39,734 nucleotides of DNA from a virus (lineage: Duplodnaviria; Caudoviricetes): positions 1 to 39,734 of the IMG/VR virus record IMGVR_UViG_3300032254_000013; one strand, 5' to 3'. Below are positions 5,045-39,310 of the stretch, piece by piece. The notes under the pieces were generated by a model. That model did no database searches, was not told where the DNA came from, and was given only the letters and a program-made list of their open reading frames with translations. Each line of letters opens with the position of its first letter. The first letter of the stretch is position 1. The position numbers were made by a program, and so were the translations under genes.

Positions 5045-8000
5045 TTATTCATCCGCAAACCTGCCTTTGTTTCGCAGGTGTTGCATGTTCTTTCTTAAGT
5101 ACACGCCATTTTTTGTCATTGCACTTGTACGTGCACGCATCTTTAATGAGCGCTCAATGCTGTCAACAGTAATGGCGTTTGTTGGGTTCTTTTTACTAAA
5201 CTTAGCCATCTCTTTTAAGATTTCTTTTTGCCAAGCGGCATCACCATTATTAATTGATGTTGCAAATTTATTCATTAATAGCTTACGGCGGTCTTTAATT
5301 CTATTTTCCGCGTTTTTAATAGTGGACCGTGCATCATATTGTTTATTAACACGGCCAACAGAAAAACCAATGAACTGCATAAAGGCTTCAAAGGCATTAA
5401 TATCCTGAACAATTGGATCGCCTTTTAAAGTGGTGGCACCTTCATCGGCGATACGCACGGCTTTCATTACATCTTTTGCAGATTTGGGTAGCATGGTTTC
5501 AATGCCGCGATACACTTTGCCTTCTTTCATTAAACCTACGCCACGTGCTGCACTGTCTAAAATACCGAGGGTTGGCCCTAGCATGCTTAATGCCTGGTAT
5601 TGCAACTCTTCTTTTGCTTCTAAATCACGGCCTGAAGGTCTAAACCACAAACTATCTAATGCCAATCTATCGCTAAAACCGACACCCGTTAATGCTTCAA
5701 CGGGCCCTATTGCAAGAACGTCTGCCCATGTTGAACCTAAAAGCTCAGTAAAATTATTACGACGCTCCGCTTCAATATCAAAAGGCTCATCTTCATCATC
5801 CCAAATCATTTCTAAAATTAAATCGATAACACCAAATGGGAGCCATGGCATACCGTTATACCCCACGAACAAGTAAGACATAAACAAAATACCGCCCAGC
5901 TTTCGGCGAGCTTCTTTCTTAACTGCAGCACTTTCACCTTTAACTGATTGGTAAGTAGAACGTGCTAGCAAATAGATCATATTCAGTGAATATTGTTTGA
6001 AGATGAATGCCACTTTTGCAATATCGTTTTGCATAAAGGCAGCTTTGTTTGCATTAGAATAATTAAAGTGAGTCGCATCCACCATGTCATAAGCTTCTTG
6101 CATTGCGACTGCATGAGACAGGCCTTTTTTACGGGCTAACCGATAAGTGGCAATCGATGTGACTTCACGGTTAAACCGTTCAGCGTGATGAAAAGCATAA
6201 CTCACCGCACCCATCACTTTATCTTTTTTAGGACTATAAATTGCGCTGGGTGTTTCAGACATAGCCGCTAAATCATGCGCAAGCGTTTTATCAATAATTC
6301 CTGTATCAACCAACCATTGGTATGCCTTAAGTTCATCCCCTTTCAGTGCACCTTCAATACTAAACAGGCCATCTTTAACCTCAATACGATTACCCATGAA
6401 TTCACGCGAGGCGTTTAATAGCTCTTTACCGGCTTTAGTAAACCCAAACTTTGCCCCCATAGAGGGGAAGGCCACCATAGCGGTTTGCGTCATATTAACA
6501 ATAGCCGCTGCAGGTGTTGCACCCAGGTACCAAACAAAATTAAATTGAGTGACGTTATTTGCCCACCCTGCTCCCATGGGGTTCATTGCCCAGTCATGAC
6601 GTTTTTTGGTTTCATTGAGAATTTGCGCAGCTTTATCGGCTTTGTCGCCGGTCATATCGCGTGCTTGTTCTTCCATATTTTCAAGTTGTGTTTGCATGAC
6701 ATCAGCAAACTTTAATTTACTTAACTGGTAAGCACCGTGAAAATTATGATGAGAAAATGCACGTAATGCATCAGGTGTAAAACCTTCTTTCTTTTGACGA
6801 TGAATAAAAGATTTACGCATTGAAACGTCTGGCAAGGTATTCAAAAACAATTGGTAAATTTCATCATGTGTGCTATTTGACTGAAGGTTAAGTTTATCAA
6901 CTACCTTTAAAACATTAGCAATAAAGCCTTCGCTAACCGCTGCATCTTGTCTGTTTTTATCAATCTTGTGGCCAGTTTTTACTTTAAGCCCTTCGTTTTC
7001 TTTTTTCTTAACGAGGTTGTCTCGATGGCCTTTTTTCTCGAACATATAAAACTCATAATCAGTAGACTTTTCAACCGCCCATTTAATGGCTTCTTCTTTA
7101 GAGTCAAATGTTTCAATGGCATTACGGGTTTCTTTTAGCATAACCGCCCACTTGCCCTGCTCTGAGTCTTTTGCCGTGAACCCTTTGTTTCGAATAGAAT
7201 ATTTTTTCTGCCACTCAGTAGGAATTAACACCTTAGCCCAGTAATCACCGAAACGGGCTAACGGGAAGTAAGGCCCCTCAATACGAACAGATTCAAACTG
7301 CGCACGCATTTCAGCTTTGTATTGTTCTTTTTCTTTTGCGCTGAGTTCAGCACGATCAATCTTGTCCATTAACGCTTGTTGAGTTTGGTCCATTCGCTGA
7401 ACATAATGATCGCGTACTTCTTTGTAAATTTCTTGCGCTTTAGGTGGCAACTTATCCCATTGGCGCTTTAATTCTGGATAAGCTTTTTCTCTGTTTTTCT
7501 CAAAGGCAACACGCTCTCTTATTTCATTTACTTTCTCAATATATTTACCGGCTTCACCAGGCATTGATTTAGCAAAACGGAATTGTTTAGCGATATCCTC
7601 TTTGGCGGCGCCAAGATTAATAATTGAACTATAAGGCTCTGCAGGATCAACTCCCGCAATGGTGGCCGCATGCATGGTGTTTACCATAGCATCGGCATCT
7701 TTAACGTTTTCTTTTTGTGTCGCCCACTTCGTCCAGCCCTTAGCAATCTCTGAAGACTCAGCCACTAATTCATTTCTAAAAGCGTCCATCTTCTCAGCTG
7801 TGAGCACGTAGGTTTTAATGGTCGGTAAAATGCTGCTACCAATATCAGCCAAGTGACGGCGAGTGAGCATTTTTAATGCGCCCGGGCGAAGATGATCAAT
7901 TGAGTTACCTAATGAACGTTTAACCTTATCCCATGTTGGTACATTTTGAGCTTCTTCATCGATATCATCTAAAATTTCATTTGGCTCACGACTAAAGTAA

Positions 8001-24665: not shown

Positions 24666-26609
24666 TTAATCGATATCTCTTATAACTTTGTTTGATGTAA
24701 CTTGTTCTAACCAACCAAAGGTGCCTACCTTGGGTCCTTCTTCTTTGTGTTCAACACTTAACACCTTGTGACGTGAGCGCAATGAGTACATTGTTTCATC
24801 CCAGCAATTTGAGACCAACACACCATTACTTAAAGCAAAAGCATGCGTCACAGGAACGGACATGCAATAAACGTTAGCTTTTCCTGCTGGCTCGACACTT
24901 ACGACCCGCAGTGGCCGCACAGTTTCTTGAGCAATACATGGCACGCTTTTGTTGCGCTTTAGTCGTAAAATAATCCGAACCGTATTGAACACATTGTTTT
25001 TTAATCGAGCGCTCGGTATGCACTTTCCCCAAAAACTCTTGGATGGTATTTGAAATAACATTAATGTCGATTGTTCTTTCAAGTCCTTCGCTTCTATCCA
25101 ACAATTTTCACCACCTACAAATTTATGATCCGGGGTACAAACAACTTCTGATCCATCTTCAAAAGTCACTTTTACAACATTGGCGTATCTTGTTTTTCTA
25201 CAATTAAGAAATTTTCTATATCCATCAGCTGAAGCAATTAGTCCAGACTTACCAACAAGTTCTTTAATGGCAACCATACCATTACTTGTCATAACTTCTG
25301 TATCACCAACAAAGCAATGGTCCTCCATTTCAGTATCCACATCTTCCCAATTGCTTGAGTTAGGCATGAGCACTGGCACGGTTCTTAACCAATGTGTGCA
25401 AGTATCAAAAACAAAGAACTTGTTTTCAGTTAACGCGTTAATAATTAACTGTGCACCAATAATTCTTGAGCCGGGACCTTTCTTTGATTTAATCCAACGC
25501 ACCTTTTGGTTTTTAAATAAATCATAAATACTTAGCTCATTACCAACATCAGCCCACATAGCGCTATCAGCTGGATTTTTTAAGAAACGAATACCTGCTT
25601 TACGTTCTTTGGCTTCAATCTTAAATATTGCTTTAGCAACTGCTGTGGCATTTTCTCGCGTACCCGTATTAGGTTTACCACCATAACCATACAACTCACG
25701 GTAACGATAAATTTCACCTTCAGGGCTCATGCAATACCAACCGATTGAATACGGTTTAGCTGAACCCCAATCCATTGCTCTCCATCGAGGCCAGTCAACT
25801 GGAATCTTAAACGGTGAAACTTTATGAATCTTGTTATCCCAAATGCCTTGTAAGAATCCACCTACAACGATATCCCAGTCACCATAGCGCCATGCTTTCT
25901 TCAGCTCAGGGTTTTTAATACCTTCAAGCTGCTTAACGTATTCGGGATCGTTTTCAAATATTGCAGGGTTATCATCAAGACTAACGTTAATTCTTACACG
26001 TACATTGCCTTGCTCATCTTGAGCAACCGTACCTTCGGGACCAAGATCAATAAAACGTTCTTTAACCCAGTTGTGTCCAGCACCGAATGGATTGCCCGTT
26101 GAAACATAAAACTTGGGAACACCAGGTATCGAACAACGGCTACACGATTTCATAACCTCGTAGCATTCATCCGTTGGCCAGTTAGTTAGCTCTTCCCAGC
26201 CAATGAACGGTAATTCGTGACCGTGAAAACTCCAATAAGCATCCACGTCTTTCATGACGCGGAATAACAATTCCTCGCCATCCGGAAAGACCCACTTATA
26301 ATCACCCTTCGATGCTAACCAACGAGCGCCGGGGAATAACTGAGGGATCCAACGTTTTGATTTTTTAATAATGTCATCGAGGTGCTTATACTCTCGACGA
26401 AATATAACGCCGGTCCATGCAGCACCAAAACCTAAACCCACATACCGCAGGTACTTCATCAGTAATGTGTCGGTTTTGCCCCCACCACGATTACCTTCTG
26501 CAAATATTTCTTTTATCGGGCAGGTTAAGAATTTAGTTTGTCCACCTGGGTAAGGTGTCCAAACAATCTTTAATTCTGATTCTGTTGAGGGAAGTGTTGC
26601 TTCTGCCAT
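24666..26609 (-). CDS. terL: Terminase large subunit containing an intein
   Basis: Walker A GNRGGGKT, Walker B IGWEEL, TGNP coupling motif, RNase H-like nuclease AMDWG and final EDH|CWD split by the intein. Confidence 0.92.
   Translation of the reverse strand: MAEATLPSTESELKIVWTPYPGGQTKFLTCPIKEIFAEGNRGGGKTDTLLMKYLRYVGLGFGAAWTGVIFRREYKHLDDIIKKSKRWIPQLFPGARWLASKGDYKWVFPDGEELLFRVMKDVDAYWSFHGHELPFIGWEELTNWPTDECYEVMKSCSRCSIPGVPKFYVSTGNPFGAGHNWVKERFIDLGPEGTVAQDEQGNVRVRINVSLDDNPAIFENDPEYVKQLEGIKNPELKKAWRYGDWDIVVGGFLQGIWDNKIHKVSPFKIPVDWPRWRAMDWGSAKPYSIGWYCMSPEGEIYRYRELYGYGGKPNTGTRENATAVAKAIFKIEAKERKAGIRFLKNPADSAMWADVGNELSIYDLFKNQKVRWIKSKKGPGSRIIGAQLIINALTENKFFVFDTCTHWLRTVPVLMPNSSNWEDVDTEMEDHCFVGDTEVMTSNGMVAIKELVGKSGLIASADGYRKFLNCRKTRYANVVKVTFEDGSEVVCTPDHKFVGGENCWIEAKDLKEQSTLMLFQIPSKSFWGKCIPSARLKNNVFNTVRIILRLKRNKSVPCIAQETVRPLRVVSVEPAGKANVYCMSVPVTHAFALSNGVLVSNCWDETMYSLRSRHKVLSVEHKEEGPKVGTFGWLEQVTSNKVIRDID
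24807..25316 (-). other. 170-aa mini-intein in TerL (Cys432-Asn601)
   Basis: Block A CFVGDTEV, block B VCTPDHKF, block F VYCMSV, block G NGVLVSN followed by Cys+1. Confidence 0.9.
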
Positions 26610-31766: not shown

Positions 31767-31809
31767 AATATAAACATAACGTTTATACAAATGTCAACAT
31801 TTTGTTTAT
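31767..31809. promoter_or_regulatory. OR operators and PR promoter
   Basis: 17-bp palindromes ATAAACATAACGTTTAT (31770-31786) and GTCAACATTTTGTTTAT (31793-31809); minus-strand TTGACA at 31792-31797. Confidence 0.75.
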
Positions 31810-33170: not shown

Positions 33171-33213
33171 ATAAACAAAATGTTTGCATTACCATAAACG
33201 TTATGTTTATACT
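33171..33213 (+). promoter_or_regulatory. OL operators and PL promoter
   Basis: ATAAACAAAATGTTTGC (33171-33187) and ATAAACGTTATGTTTAT (33194-33210, exact reverse complement of the OR site at 31770); TTGCAT-N18-TATACT. Confidence 0.78.
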
Positions 33214-34045: not shown

Positions 34046-34236
34046 AATTCTTTAAAAAAATCATTTGTTACTTTAAAGGGCATGACTTTGGTGCTGCTGT
34101 TTATATCTCTCCTTCAATGTTGGTGTATTGCCGCACTTGCGGAGTTGAAATACAAGACAGAACTATTGAAGACCTCGAACCAATGACAGACGAAGACTAT
34201 GAACATCTTGAATTAATGGAGCAGCTATCAGAATGA
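34042..34236 (+). CDS. Small Zn-binding phage protein (CxxxGH...CxxC)
   Basis: ICYFKGHDF...CRTCG; GGAG RBS, ATGA coupling. Confidence 0.6.
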   Translation: MKFFKKIICYFKGHDFGAAVYISPSMLVYCRTCGVEIQDRTIEDLEPMTDEDYEHLELMEQLSE

Positions 34237-34610
34237 ATGCACAACAACACAAAATAACCGACTTCGAGCGCGATATTTTAAAGTGGCTTGCTGAAGGTGA
34301 AAAAACACGCTCAGCTGAAACAATCGCCCTCACCCTTTTAGGTGTTCCCCGCAGAGATATTTTTAAAAATAACTTTTGCATTTATGCACCACGCAATGCG
34401 CACGACTTTCGCACAAGTTACATCATGGTGGCAGCGGTACCAGGTGCACGTGAACAGCTCGACAAACTTAAAAAGCTTGGCCGTGTATGGACCAACGTTA
34501 TTACCAACTGGGACAAATTAGTAAAGCTTTATAAAGAAGAATGTCTTCAAGGCAAACAACCAAAACTTGAAGCCTTGTTACGTGACTTAAATGAAAGAGC
34601 GGTGGTTTAG
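34233..34610 (+). CDS. Phage hypothetical protein, paralogue of cassette gene 36392-36727
   Basis: ATGA coupling; shared IL.W...G....S..T.A...G.P, P....DF and W...I..WD pattern. Confidence 0.65.
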   Translation: MNAQQHKITDFERDILKWLAEGEKTRSAETIALTLLGVPRRDIFKNNFCIYAPRNAHDFRTSYIMVAAVPGAREQLDKLKKLGRVWTNVITNWDKLVKLYKEECLQGKQPKLEALLRDLNERAVV

Positions 34611-35247: not shown

Positions 35248-35450
35248 TAACTGAATGCGCAACTCGAAAAAAATGTGACCAGGCGCTGCGCAAGTTTGGT
35301 GGTGTTGGAATATTTGAAGGTGATGTTTGGTTAGCTTGTCATGCAGGTGAAGAAACACGTTATCGAAGTAATGAACATATTGATAATTTAAAAGACTGTG
35401 ATTGGTTAGAACCAACACCAATAAGCAAAGGTCAAATGGGATTAATATGA
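35244..35450 (+). CDS. Hypothetical protein
   Basis: ATGA coupling upstream; overlaps the MTase start. Confidence 0.5.
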   Translation: MITECATRKKCDQALRKFGGVGIFEGDVWLACHAGEETRYRSNEHIDNLKDCDWLEPTPISKGQMGLI

Positions 35451-36328
35451 TTGCAGTAAACAGTTACTTCTCAGGTGGTGGTCTTCTTGATATTGGTTTG
35501 ATGCAAGCTGGCTTGCAAATACATCAATCATTTGAGCTTGATAAAATTGCTTGTGAAGTACAAAAACACAACTTAGGTAATCATGTAATTCAAAGTGACT
35601 TAACAAAAAAACTCGTTAGTAATGATAACAATGCAGATGTGATGGCATTTACCTATCCATGCACAAAATATTCCCCTATTGCTAACATTCAAGGCAGTCG
35701 AACCGGTGATGAATTATTCCTTCATGCATTAAGACATATAGTAATCAAAAAACCTGAGGCTTACACGATAGAGAATGTACCCGGTATGAGAGCTTTTCCG
35801 GTAGTAATGGAGGCAATGACCAGGCTACCTGATTACTATATACAAGTATTTTGCCCTATTCAGTCAGAAATATGGCTACCTCAAAAAAGAGATAGATTAA
35901 TTATTATTGGCACTAAAAAGAATTTTAATTTTCGCCCACCAAAAAAGACAAAACAAATAAAGCTTCGTGAAATTCTTGAAAAAGATCCTCAAATAAAAGT
36001 GCCAAAATATGTATTAGACAGAATGAAAGGACGTTACCGAGATTTACCCATTATTTCCGATCCAGATAATAATGATTTAGCTCCAACGTGTGTAGCCCAT
36101 TACTCTAAAGATAAAAGCACTCGTTTAGTAAAAGATAAAAATTTCCCAATGAATGTTAGGCCATACACTGTCAGGGAGTATGCAAGACTCCAGGGAGTAC
36201 CAGATTGGTATGAGTTTAATTGCTCTGATTCAGCAGCTTACAAAATAATTGGTAACGGTGTCAGTGTACATGCAGGACAGTGGTTAGGTTTTGAATTAAA
36301 GAGATATTTTAATTTAGGTAAAAAATGA
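35447..36328 (+). CDS. Orphan DNA (cytosine-5) methyltransferase
   Basis: Motif I FSGGG, IV YPC, VI ENV, VIII QKRDR, IX REYARLQG, X IGNGV. Confidence 0.92.
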   Translation: MIAVNSYFSGGGLLDIGLMQAGLQIHQSFELDKIACEVQKHNLGNHVIQSDLTKKLVSNDNNADVMAFTYPCTKYSPIANIQGSRTGDELFLHALRHIVIKKPEAYTIENVPGMRAFPVVMEAMTRLPDYYIQVFCPIQSEIWLPQKRDRLIIIGTKKNFNFRPPKKTKQIKLREILEKDPQIKVPKYVLDRMKGRYRDLPIISDPDNNDLAPTCVAHYSKDKSTRLVKDKNFPMNVRPYTVREYARLQGVPDWYEFNCSDSAAYKIIGNGVSVHAGQWLGFELKRYFNLGKK

Positions 36329-36374
36329 ACTTGCTGCCCACAATGCAGTTTGCCATTGGAATTAATTGTTAGCA
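36324..36374 (-). repeat. Degenerate distal attC-like site (attC0)
   Basis: Minus strand TGCTAAC-AATTA-ATTCCAAT has a normal R''/L'' arm, but only a short CAATG/CATTG stem and a weak GTTCATT on the other side. Confidence 0.5.
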
Positions 36375-36391
36375 CTTTTTTGGAGAGAGGC

Positions 36392-36727
36392 ATGAAAAAC
36401 AAAATACTTGAATGGTTTGCAAACGGGCAGGTTGGCTCAAGCTCAAAAACGATGGCTTGCGCTGCCGCCGGATTACCCCAAGATAGATTTGGTGGTAGCC
36501 ATCCATACGACCCTGCCGATTTTAATAGATGCTTATTGCTTTTAGAAAAAGCACCAGAAATACGTAAACATTTTAATAAGGTTTCTGATGTTTCAGAAAC
36601 ATGGAAAAAATTAATAGATCGATGGGATGAAGTTGAGAAGACGTTTATAGATGAAGTTGGTTACAACTGGAGCAAATGTGATAGTGCACCAAAGACCTAT
36701 GAATTGATGAAGTCTATAGGGTGCTAA
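36392..36727 (+). CDS. Cassette A gene: phage hypothetical protein
   Basis: GGAGAGAGG RBS; HPYDPADFNRC motif; TAA stop within the TAAC core. Confidence 0.8.
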   Translation: MKNKILEWFANGQVGSSSKTMACAAAGLPQDRFGGSHPYDPADFNRCLLLLEKAPEIRKHFNKVSDVSETWKKLIDRWDEVEKTFIDEVGYNWSKCDSAPKTYELMKSIGC

Positions 36728-36794
36728 CGATGAAGTTAATTTGCAAGAAAGGAGCGCAGCGGAATGATTGTCAAAATTAAACGCCTTGTTATCT
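36722..36794 (-). repeat. attC1 (73 bp)
   Basis: Minus strand TAAC-AAGGC-GTTTAATT...AATTAAC-TTCATC-GTTA; one extra base in L''. Confidence 0.85.
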
Positions 36795-37057
36795 TTTTGC
36801 ATTGCTGGTGGTTCGGGCATGAGCCTGATTACAGTGGACAAGTATTTGATAGTGACCCTGATAACTATGGCTGGCAAAACACACCATGCAAGTGTTGTGG
36901 CTTATGGGATATTCCATATCACGAACTTGTAGAAGGTAGCCGACACTATAAAGTAAAACAGTTCTTTCGATACTGGCTATACAAAAGATGGTGGCCTGAG
37001 AAGTGCATTGACTGCAGCAAGCGTTACGGTAAGCACAATAGCTGCATACCATTTTGA
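36764..37057 (+). CDS. Cassette B gene: Cys/His-rich protein starting inside attC1
   Basis: AAGGAG in the attC loop; CWWFGH, CKCCG, CIDC. Confidence 0.7.
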   Translation: MIVKIKRLVIFLHCWWFGHEPDYSGQVFDSDPDNYGWQNTPCKCCGLWDIPYHELVEGSRHYKVKQFFRYWLYKRWWPEKCIDCSKRYGKHNSCIPF

Positions 37058-37058
37058 A

Positions 37059-37121
37059 AGATAACGGCCTAAATAACGTGCCGGAGCGCAGCGTAGGTCG
37101 CTGTTGATTTTATTGTTATAT
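37059..37121 (-). repeat. attC2 (63 bp)
   Basis: Minus strand TAAC-AATAA-AATCAACA...CGTTATT-TAGGCC-GTTA; extrahelical C. Confidence 0.88.
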
Positions 37122-37134
37122 TTTGGAGTTTATT

Positions 37135-37323
37135 ATGGATACATCAACAAATTGTCAGAAGTGCGGTAAGACCACAGAGGTATATTGCTCTCGTTGGTGT
37201 GAAGCATGTTATTACCCTGGTATCGATCAAGATTATGAAGAATATCAGGCAATGCTGGATGAAGGTCATAGACCAGCAGTAGCTGCTGTACAGTCTGGGT
37301 GGAAAGGTATTGAAGAAATATAA
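37135..37323 (+). CDS. Cassette C gene: small CxxC...CxxC protein
   Basis: GGAG RBS; CQKCG...CEAC; TAA in the core. Confidence 0.7.
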   Translation: MDTSTNCQKCGKTTEVYCSRWCEACYYPGIDQDYEEYQAMLDEGHRPAVAAVQSGWKGIEEI

Positions 37324-37389
37324 CGCTGGAGCTATGCGGCTATGAATGAATCGCAGCGTAACGAAATCCGAACGAGCGTATTGTTATGA
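37318..37389 (-). repeat. attC3 (72 bp)
   Basis: Minus strand TAAC-AATAC-GCTCGTTC...GCATAGC-TCCAGC-GTTA; L pairing imperfect. Confidence 0.8.
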
Positions 37390-37616
37390 GCGAATTTAAT
37401 GTTGAACAGGCAATGGAAAACGAAAAGCTAAAGAACGAACTTAGCTTGCAGCACACACATTATTTCTTGAACCTGTATAAGTTTGGGGATTCTCCATTCT
37501 GGTCGATGCACACAAACTATCAAGTTGCAGTGAATGATGCCGAACAGAATAAACGATATGGTAATAAAGCCTTGCATATTGGTATTCCGATACCGAGAGA
37601 AATGTTTGGCTCATAA
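37386..37616 (+). CDS. Cassette D gene: hypothetical protein
   Basis: ATG within GTTATG, TAA within TAAC. Confidence 0.7.
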   Translation: MSEFNVEQAMENEKLKNELSLQHTHYFLNLYKFGDSPFWSMHTNYQVAVNDAEQNKRYGNKALHIGIPIPREMFGS

Positions 37617-37700
37617 CGAATTTTAATAAGAGGCGCGACACAATGAAAACAGAGAAGAGAACCAACGCTTTCAAGCGTCCTTTTGATTTGTTTGTTATGT
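37611..37700 (-). repeat. attC4 (90 bp)
   Basis: Minus strand TAAC-AAACA-AATCAAAAGGACGC...GCGCCTCTTATT-AAAATTC-GTTA; same family as attC5. Confidence 0.82.
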
Positions 37701-37924
37701 GGTTTAAATTCAGAAAACATCCTTGTTACCGAGGTGCTGGCGAGTTTGAACATGATCTTGAAGTGGTTGATGATTCCTTTGACCATGAATTTGGAACTGA
37801 GGTTATTCAATATATGCAATGTGAAACATGCGGGGCAACTCATGATGAGGACGCAACTGTGCCGGAAAGCCCACAAGGTTTTTGGGATGACAGTAGTGAA
37901 GATTTCTACGAGTTGCACACATAA
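37643..37924 (+). CDS. Cassette E gene: acidic Zn-ribbon protein (alternative start 37697)
   Basis: VDDSFDHEFGTE...CETCG; starts inside attC4. Confidence 0.7.
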   Translation: MKTEKRTNAFKRPFDLFVMWFKFRKHPCYRGAGEFEHDLEVVDDSFDHEFGTEVIQYMQCETCGATHDEDATVPESPQGFWDDSSEDFYELHT

Positions 37925-38007
37925 CGATTTTAATAAGGGGCGCGACATGACCAACCTAGAGAAAAACGCCGATGCTTCCGAGCGCCCGCTTGATTTACTT
38001 GTTATGC
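37919..38007 (-). repeat. attC5 (89 bp)
   Basis: Minus strand TAAC-AAGTA-AATCAAGCGGGCGC...GCGCCCCTTATT-AAAATC-GTTA. Confidence 0.86.
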
Positions 38008-38318
38008 GTATTTTGCAACTGACATTAAAAAAGCAATGGTTTGATTTGATTGCCAGCGGTGAGAAGAAATTTGAATACCGCGAATATAAAAAGCACTGGA
38101 TGTCTCGCTTGCTCTGTAAGCAGGGTATTCGTAATTATGATGAAGTTCGCTTTACCAATGGCTATGGGAAAGATAAGCCGTTTATCCGTGTTGAGTTCAA
38201 AGGTGCGGCGATTATTAAAGGTGCGCATTGCTCTCCAGATAATGGCGAGCCACTGAACCAAGAACAAAAGTATTTTGTTATCGGCCTCGGTAAAGTGTTA
38301 GAGGTTGGGAACGCATAA
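37947..38318 (+). CDS. Cassette F gene: ASCH/PUA-domain protein (alternative start 38004)
   Basis: L.LTLKKQWFDLIASGEKKFEYRE and F.NGY are ASCH-type motifs. Confidence 0.8.
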   Translation: MTNLEKNADASERPLDLLVMRILQLTLKKQWFDLIASGEKKFEYREYKKHWMSRLLCKQGIRNYDEVRFTNGYGKDKPFIRVEFKGAAIIKGAHCSPDNGEPLNQEQKYFVIGLGKVLEVGNA

Positions 38319-38385
38319 CGGCTGAACTCACTTGCGCTGAAAGAGCACAGCGAGTGAAGCGTCAAAGTGGAGTGAATTGTTATGT
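38313..38385 (-). repeat. attC6 (73 bp)
   Basis: Minus strand TAAC-AATTC-ACTCCACT...AGTGAGT-TCAGCC-GTTA; extrahelical C. Confidence 0.9.
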
Positions 38386-38633
38386 TTTGCTGTGGAAAAG
38401 AAAGAGACGGTAAGTTTTGCTCAGAATGTGGAGCAGAGTTTATTGCGGATACCACTAAGAGAAACTTGGCTGATTATTTAGACAGGCAAGCGAAGACTGT
38501 AAAAAAGAACATTGATAACAGACTAAAAATTAAACCAGACATGGACGAGAGCACAATAAAAAAGTGGAACCAAAAAATTAAAAAATGGGAAGAATGGAGG
38601 GACTGGGTTCTCTCTGTTGAACCAGAAACATAA
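38382..38633 (+). CDS. Cassette G gene: zinc-ribbon plus coiled-coil protein
   Basis: CCG...KFCSECG; ATG in GTTATG, TAA in TAAC. Confidence 0.72.
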   Translation: MFCCGKERDGKFCSECGAEFIADTTKRNLADYLDRQAKTVKKNIDNRLKIKPDMDESTIKKWNQKIKKWEEWRDWVLSVEPET

Positions 38634-38699
38634 CGGCGCTGCTCAGTTGTTGCGACTGAGCGTAGCGAAAGAGCAATCAACTGGAGTGAATTGTTATGT
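38628..38699 (-). repeat. attC7 (72 bp)
   Basis: Minus strand TAAC-AATTC-ACTCCAGTTGATTGC...GCAACAACTGAGC-AGCGCC-GTTA; extrahelical C and A as in canonical attC. Confidence 0.9.
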
Positions 38700-38971
38700 G
38701 GGAATTTAGTGCAGAAACAAAACCAACAGCACGTAAGGATTACCATTGCGAGGCATCAGACTGGATTATAAATACAGTTGGATTGGACGAGCGAGAATTT
38801 GAGCCAGAGGATTGGGCGAAAATTGAAGAAGCAAGAAAAAATGGATTTAAGATTTTAAAGGGTGAGAAATATATAAATGTATCTGGGAAGTGGGAAGGTG
38901 AGTTTTCTACTTTCCGCGCAATACCAGAGCTTAATGATATTTGTATTAAGTACGATCTTTATTGTGATTGA
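38696..38971 (+). CDS. Cassette H gene: phage hypothetical protein
   Basis: ARKDYHC...ILKGEKY motif; ATG in GTTATG. Confidence 0.72.
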   Translation: MWEFSAETKPTARKDYHCEASDWIINTVGLDEREFEPEDWAKIEEARKNGFKILKGEKYINVSGKWEGEFSTFRAIPELNDICIKYDLYCD

Positions 38972-38973
38972 GC

Positions 38974-38995
38974 ACATAACAACAGAATATGCGGA
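38974..38995 (-). repeat. Proximal half site, candidate attI-like site
   Basis: Minus strand CCGCATAT-TCTGTT-GTTATGT has a core site but no partner arm to form a hairpin. Confidence 0.5.
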
Positions 38996-39007
38996 GTGTG
39001 CAAGGTA

Positions 39008-39310
39008 ATGTTTAGAAAGCGTACAAAATATAGCGAGAAATTAAAGGTTATGCGAAAAGCCAAAGAACGCAAACGGCTTGAAGGTGATGCGCCCGACTAT
39101 CCTATAATGCTGCCAGAGATTCGCCGCCGCATAATTATTATTGACTATGATTTTGGTGAAGTAATGCACGAAATAGTTTTAAAAAAATCAAGCCGTGTTG
39201 ACTGTTACCAGGCAGTTATCGACGGCAAGGTTTGGAGAGAAAGAATTGGCTGGTCAAAAATTTTAGAAGCCGTCCGCAAAAGTTTTATACGAGTAGGTAC
39301 GGTATGCTAA
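39008..39310 (+). CDS. Basic hypothetical protein between array and xis
   Basis: GGAG upstream; stop overlaps the xis start. Confidence 0.65.
   Translation: MFRKRTKYSEKLKVMRKAKERKRLEGDAPDYPIMLPEIRRRIIIIDYDFGEVMHEIVLKKSSRVDCYQAVIDGKVWRERIGWSKILEAVRKSFIRVGTVC

Follow-up and report, generated by a model that had tools for sequence, protein, structure and literature searches.

A candidate reversed integron-type cassette array beside an attI-like site in a contig of a likely temperate phage

Towards the right end of the virus record IMGVR_UViG_3300032254_000013 (Duplodnaviria; Caudoviricetes), all 39,734 bases of which were analysed and are called the window here, eight small genes are separated by hairpins that resemble the attC sites of integrons. 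The array, at positions 36368 to 38980, is made up of eight units and seven attC-type spacers. Its layout raises the question of whether the units are mobile gene cassettes and, if so, which hairpin belongs to which gene. The units are probably reversed integron-type cassettes with an attI-like site downstream of them, and their circles would be exchanged by an integron integrase (IntI), most likely one of the host. The array works like an integron and corresponds to a cluster of attC sites lacking an integrase (CALIN), since it holds seven attC-type sites in a record, itself incomplete, that has no IntI; it departs from an integron in the direction of its genes and in having no intI beside attI.

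Complementary unit ends and hairpin polarity

The initial annotation had described the two ends of each unit as perfectly complementary, and as pairing over more bases than the two cores of any hairpin within the array. All 16 end motifs were found in place and both statements were borne out: the own ends of 8 of 8 units pair over 8, 9, 9, 9, 8, 9, 9 and 8 bases (sum 69), and the in-array hairpin cores over 4, 5, 5, 6, 6, 6 and 7. When end pairings were shuffled, the check proposed with the annotation, 2 of 40,320 permutations reached 69 (mean 45.4, standard deviation 3.9), namely the true pairing and a swap of units 5 and 8, which have one 8-mer in common. A structure-blind chain search over the whole 39.7 kb returned the same chain of eight as the best. 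Since the unit end coincides with the TAA stop of the unit's open reading frame (ORF) in 6 of 8 units, the ends were not freely picked.

Matching ends are a known, general signature of cassettes and are not new, as an ordinary bacterial integron shows them too. In the canonical IntI integron L077 the own ends of two units pair over 14 and 14 bases, and in the published cluster of phage TJE1 over 8, 8 and 8. The attC of a cassette is defined as the element in its circular form (ACID paper, PMC2674596). Matching ends arise under either polarity and cannot tell which hairpin belongs to which gene. Joining the unit ends in silico, also proposed with the annotation, gives a lower fold energy at each of the 7 sites because of the extra pairs, and polarity is not told by it, the result being the same for either. 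The circular intermediates claimed by the annotation fit in so far as the units are of integron type and matching ends are what circles leave. Its placing of the insertion between the G and the TT of GTT on the plus strand is not supported, given the bulge geometry, the fixed site at the right end and a branch among the contigs of run X1, all described below.

Polarity can be read from the hairpins, because the recombining strand of attC bears two bulged bases, a G at position 16 and a T at 23 or 24 (Nivina et al., PMC5027507). To set the sites without regard to structure, chains of complementary units were followed to the left of the fixed site in 27 loci, of which 17 gave chains and 10 none; of 38 chained sites the 33 whose flanking units both had at least 8 pairs were kept, 7 of them from the window. 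With the minus strand as attC top strand 65 of 99 outer L-box pairs form, compared with 21 of 99 for the plus strand, and the minus-strand fit is better at 24 sites, worse at 1 and tied at 8 (sign test p 1.5e-6, among sites that through kinship are not independent). A G occupies the bulge position in 17 of the 33 sites and a T the second bulge in 27, versus 8 at the mirror position. The window alone gives 18 of 21 outer L pairs for minus as top and 6 of 21 for plus, with the bulged G in 6/7 and the bulged T in 6/7 sites on the plus strand, the one predicted to recombine. The AAC and GTT cores lie 63-90 nt apart in 7/7 window sites, within the 57-141 bp spacing of attC.

A strict attC detector, run over both strands of 26 loci, reported 33 sites on the plus strand within 5 kb to the left of the fixed site, none on the minus strand and 1 on the plus strand to the right; it picks up 4 of the 7 window sites. 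The control integron L077 scores the opposite way in the polarity test. The geometry agrees both with the G16 and T23/24 rule of PMC5027507 and with the aadA7 oligo in Table S3 of Qi et al. The prediction from these features is that folding and cutting take place on the gene-sense strand. In a classical cassette the attC top strand carries the gene, and the attC of that gene comes after it; here the genes are on the opposite strand.

The fixed site, related phages and contigs of run X1

Unit 8 is bordered on its right by a core that stays constant among related phages, next to a gene for a basic protein of 100 aa (Table 1). This protein has 43 database matches, itself included, and relatives of the phage were fetched with it. 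DNA likeness to loci L039, L040, L048, L049, L050 and L051 begins at 38966-38977 and extends to the right, and each has its own units to the left; among the six protein-found relatives with a blastn match, likeness starts at 38967-38977 in five and at 38966 in the sixth. A motif built from the fixed sites matched 21 viral and 2 genome loci. Of the 27 loci left after removal of duplicates, 21 carry the 100-aa family to the right of the fixed site and 6 have no such gene beside it, conservation on the right being built in for the motif-found loci. On the left, no pair exceeded 60% identity among the 20 of those loci that have 60 bases there. Comparison of these 20 loci thus points to a fixed core without hairpin next to a variable first cassette, as in attI. 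There is no hairpin after unit 8, and by eye a remnant arm lies before unit 1.

In the bacterial genome bin G024 the motif heads what by eye is an array (L075) with genes in the classical direction, and a second contig of this bin (L077) codes for a full IntI. The match at L076 was rejected, as by eye it looks like a chance occurrence at a gene end. A pattern scan gave 15 loci, 3 of them array-like (L028, L035, L037) and the others chance. A promoter scan gave 17 matches versus 22.4 in shuffles, which is chance level; from a Pc promoter, which in integrons drives the array from attI, the genes would here be transcribed in antisense. The 100-aa protein belongs to no known family, and its predicted fold (pLDDT 81.5) had no Foldseek match at E<=0.001 in the viral or PDB libraries, the best VIA Z being 3.8 and the best Atlas value 0.78; searches with sequence and model thus indicate neither a function nor a new fold. 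The close relative L039 has the same fixed site, and downstream of it, at 6429-7986, lie what by eye are a large serine recombinase and a tRNA-Glu in place of the different integrase start of the window.

One run, X1, contains the stretch and may be its source; the evidence from it is of contigs only, and no RNA run was listed as containing the stretch. An X1 contig of 1,622 bases (depth 17.2) ends at 37066 and is continued both by the window path (depth 13.3) and by a contig of 230 bases (depth 8.9) that enters a different hairpin, an 18-base piece of which is present in a site of L042. The branch lies one base after the AAC of unit 2 and 49 before the next GTT, whereas classical polarity predicts 37115. 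It is a weak hint of crossover between the AA and the C. X1 contigs at depth 31-36 share site 7 and continue into the downstream gene of L039, their upstream sequence being unlike that of L039. An abundant relative thus appears to join site 7 to this downstream gene with another gene upstream, along a path inferred from depths. As for the circle junctions suggested as a check on the initial annotation, neither a circle nor a skip joint over the array was seen in the X1 contigs, which drop rare forms.

Because of the bulge geometry, the fixed site at the right end and the X1 branch, crossover is likely to take place between the AA and the C on the plus strand at each gene's end, and the hairpin is likely to travel with the gene after it.

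Cargo genes, proposed mechanism and its rivals

Four of the eight cargo genes match phage families of unknown function. A phrog_1229 paralogue of unit 1 stands outside the array at 34233-34610 and is also present in L039. By eye, clear cassette ends were seen in 3 (L004, L018, L019) of 13 homologue loci. An ASCH-like cassette of L004 is 82% identical to unit 6 with both ends changed in step; it has lost its ATG, and an in-frame ATG is found in the preceding hairpin. L018 (3919-6175) and L019 (4527-5689) carry arrays of another, AT-rich type, in which the matching ends are 10 bases long, and one ASCH-like cassette is common to these two phages, where it stands beside different neighbours.

In 45 of 51 units a plus-strand frame fills >60% of the unit and ends at its end, and 31 stop at the TAA of TAAC. 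The frame is open from GTT in 21 of the 51. For 17 of these the left hairpin is known; it contains an in-frame ATG in 9 cases, and in 3 the unit itself lacks an ATG within its first 60 bases. Units 4-8 of the window begin immediately after GTT, and the ATG of unit 2 lies within site 1. Judged by these motifs, hairpins often contain the presumptive ribosome site or start codon of the following gene.

The mechanism proposed for the reversed cassettes is as follows. The gene-sense strand would fold and be cut between AA and C at each gene's end, and the mobile unit would be a hairpin plus the gene after it, so that unit 8 would comprise 38634-38979. Cassettes would be excised as circles and inserted at the fixed site by an IntI that is probably host-supplied. 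New units would enter beside the fixed site, and therefore unit 8 would be the newest and unit 1, with its broken hairpin, the oldest. The genes would be read from a phage early promoter upstream; since the hairpins of several genes would supply these with a ribosome site or start codon, such genes could be translated in any position.

The integron-integrase model TIGR02249 gave no match above cut-off in 24 virus records, including 9 with a completeness of 90% or more; the recombinase searches were a loose first look and many records are fragments. The place of intI beside attI is taken by the 100-aa gene, and the window is cut 750 bases further on. As none of the 24 virus records has IntI, a host IntI acting in trans is the likely and the simplest source. 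In favour of exchange by IntI, phage PH101 sites that seem to share the layout of the array were recombined by IntI1. IntI is under SOS control (PMC5027507), which may overlap with prophage induction.

Several points weigh against this reading. Among 401 genomes of the class of G024 the fixed-site motif occurs in G024 only, and never beside intI. At the X1 branch the overlap of 30 letters falls one short of the bar of 31, and it comes from a single contig of a single run, which may itself be the source run. Near copies of site 7 stand between other genes in L039 (97% over 72 nt) and in L037, so that this hairpin precedes three unrelated genes (window, L037, L039) and hairpins are therefore not tied for long to one gene. 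Linkage of gene and hairpin, with one homologous pair in 30 units, was 0.44 on the left and 0.40 on the right with a background of 0.45, and that one pair has neither hairpin in common. The 33 sites are kin and a few may be mis-joined, and 10 of the 27 loci gave no chain. With the record 70% complete and a contig running 873 bases beyond the right end of the window, a recombinase could lie there.

The same reversed array could be run by an enzyme other than IntI that belongs to the phage or to a helper element, be it Xer-like, the integrase of the phage itself, or one for which the 100-aa protein is a needed partner. The position of the 100-aa gene, where intI would lie, and the incompleteness of the window speak for this. 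It is nonetheless unlikely, as the hairpins have the full IntI-type bulges, 6 of 27 loci have no 100-aa gene beside the site, and a general tyrosine recombinase (349-418 aa) was found in only 4 of the 24 virus records and in neither G007 nor G017, which have terminal repeats. Homologous or micro-homologous exchange across shared hairpins, these being mainly translation signals and no site-specific circles being formed, would explain why near-identical hairpins such as site 7 occur in different phages and why ribosome sites and start codons lie inside them. However, such exchange would not keep the own ends of units complementary or preserve the bulged G and T, nor would it alter both ends of the ASCH-like cassette in step, and the X1 branch and the fixed-site breakpoints fall at AAC with little shared flank; its probability is low.

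Lower still is that of a classical-polarity cluster, perhaps captured whole from a host integron, with each gene followed by its own hairpin and crossover between G and TT on the plus strand. The matching ends fit it equally well and the published TJE1 cluster has this form, but the geometry favours the minus strand by 24 sites to 1, unit 8 has no hairpin after it and unit 1 has a remnant before it, the fixed site is on the right, and four cargo genes match phage families; geometry, strict detector and left-flank comparison already contradict it. That the pattern is a chance product of GTT-ATG starts and TAA-C stops is hardly credible. The pairing of GTTATG with CATAAC in five units does yield 6 pairs free; yet these five alone give 2 of 120 permutations as good, which with the full permutations refutes chance, and the pattern recurs in 17 of 27 loci.

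A tentative and rather doubtful extension of the reversed-cassette reading is that the phages make their own cassettes, a reusable hairpin being joined to a gene start and the gene end then matched, and that the 100-aa protein steers host IntI to the docking site. The hairpin before three unrelated genes bears on this, as do the one gene that is met with two unrelated hairpins, its two ends having changed together, and the occurrence of cargo genes elsewhere as plain phage genes.

Genomic setting and comparison with known systems

Table 1. Positions and features of the array and its borders in the window
Feature	Positions	Strand	Particulars
Unit 1 hairpin remnant	36330..36374	-	By eye: arm beside GTT retains G 9 bases and T 17 bases ahead of it; outer AAC arm gone; adjoins methyltransferase stop
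Unit 1	36368..36728	+	ORF 36392-36727; phrog_1229, function unknown, E 1.6e-33; own ribosome site
attC-type site 1	36722..36794	-	73 nt; contains AAGGAG and ATG (36764) in frame with unit 2 ORF
Unit 2	36788..37065	+	ORF 36764-37057; no own ATG in first 60 nt; no family match
attC-type site 2	37059..37121	-	63 nt; X1 contig departs from window at 37066 into other hairpin
Unit 3	37115..37324	+	ORF 37135-37323; own ribosome site; no family match
attC-type site 3	37318..37389	-	72 nt
Unit 4	37383..37617	+	ORF 37386-37616; ATG right after GTT; no family match
attC-type site 4	37611..37700	-	90 nt; in-frame ATG at 37643; 74% like site 5; weak outer L pairs (1/3)
Unit 5	37694..37925	+	ORF 37697-37924; no family match
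attC-type site 5	37919..38007	-	89 nt; in-frame ATG 54 nt before GTT
Unit 6	38001..38319	+	ORF 38004-38318; phrog_625; weak ASCH match
attC-type site 6	38313..38385	-	73 nt; GGAG 9 nt before unit 7 ATG
Unit 7	38379..38634	+	ORF 38382-38633; weak phrog_12850 match
attC-type site 7	38628..38699	-	72 nt; GGAG 9 nt before unit 8 ATG
Unit 8	38693..38980	+	ORF 38696-38971; phrog_13613, E 8e-27; adjoins fixed site
Fixed attI-like site	38974..39006	-	Core GTT on minus strand; no partner hairpin; kept across related phages
100-aa basic protein gene	39008..39310	+	No known family; own ribosome site inside fixed site

Among the phage genes of the window are those for terminase, the major head protein and a giant protein like DarB, as well as a repressor/cro pair. 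From about 33200 a series of small rightward genes extends through a C5 DNA methyltransferase (35447-36328, PF00145) upstream of the array, and through the array itself, to the contig end, where its last frame is cut; by eye this frame may be the start of a phage integrase. The array is likely to lie inside the early operon of a temperate phage. A blastn search of 36300-39100 against 50,697 annotated phages gave no match, and an Rfam scan gave two weak matches only, both far from the array.

Elsewhere in the window, an inverted pair of 41 nt (88%; 31769-31809 and 33171-33211) flanks the repressor region and likely represents two operator/promoter regions; an X1 contig joins the pair across strands, possibly only via the repeat. 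On the minus strand at 65-110 lies by eye the 3' half of a tRNA-His, a likely attachment site. Near residues 420-610 the large terminase (24666-26609) carries an insertion with matches to other families, at the end of which stands a motif resembling an intein end. Two plus-strand genes at 633-1765, for a 247-aa protein and a 124-aa phrog_5176 protein, oppose the late operon in a layout that is presumably that of a toxin-antitoxin pair or defence moron.

If the reversed-cassette reading is true, a family of temperate phages has turned host integron machinery into a shuffler of accessory genes. The layout would suit a phage operon, with genes read from the far end and a translation start in each hairpin, and would account for one kind of sharp gene-boundary mosaicism in phages. 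Tools and drawings that assume gene-then-attC would give each gene the wrong hairpin. The origin of cassettes is generally regarded as an open question; the array would offer small testable substrates for it and, if phages make their own cassettes, their first making could be watched in a phage.

Clusters of attC in phages have already been published. Qi et al. (2023, PMC9892861) reported 17 attC clusters without integrase in 10,705 phage genomes, mostly of 2-4 sites; five of six sites were recombined by IntI1, the bottom strand above the top, and sites of the Pseudoalteromonas phage PH101 were recombined into attI1 by IntI1. Like the array, these phage CALINs are small genes bounded by attC with no intI, and the PH101 sites are similar, their listed strand being the gene strand: the PH101 oligos fall on the coding strand of the annotated genes, the forward oligo being taken as bottom strand from the aadA7 control and the bulged G. 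A reversed, IntI1-active example is therefore likely in print without comment, and Figure 2 or the Dryad file of Qi et al. may show it. The PH101 cluster itself (L090, 30900-33000) appears reversed, and one site occurs twice in it, with the same downstream bases and different upstream genes. Qi et al. call the PH101 layout typical, and the available parts of that paper describe neither reversed polarity nor a fixed phage docking site nor a phage family varying at one site. The TJE1 cluster differs in its classical polarity, which is read from the strand of the published oligo, the polarity score being uninformative on it. The literature search, with subscription papers mostly outside it, found no description of reversed cassette polarity in phages.

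The Treponema 'inverted' integrons (PMC3607928, PMC4889954) are like the array in having an unusual orientation within an integron, but there it is intI that is turned relative to the array; the window has no intI, and what is turned relative to attC is its genes. With classical integrons (PMC5027507, PMC2674596) the array shares sites of 63-90 nt, AAC/GTT cores, spacers of 5 and 6 nt, L boxes of 8 and 7 nt, the bulged G and T, matching cassette ends, and one fixed insertion site with a variable first cassette. It differs from them in that its genes face the fixed site and lie on the recombining strand with no intI beside the site, and in that expression would come from the far end, the hairpin standing before the gene, where it can hold the translation start.

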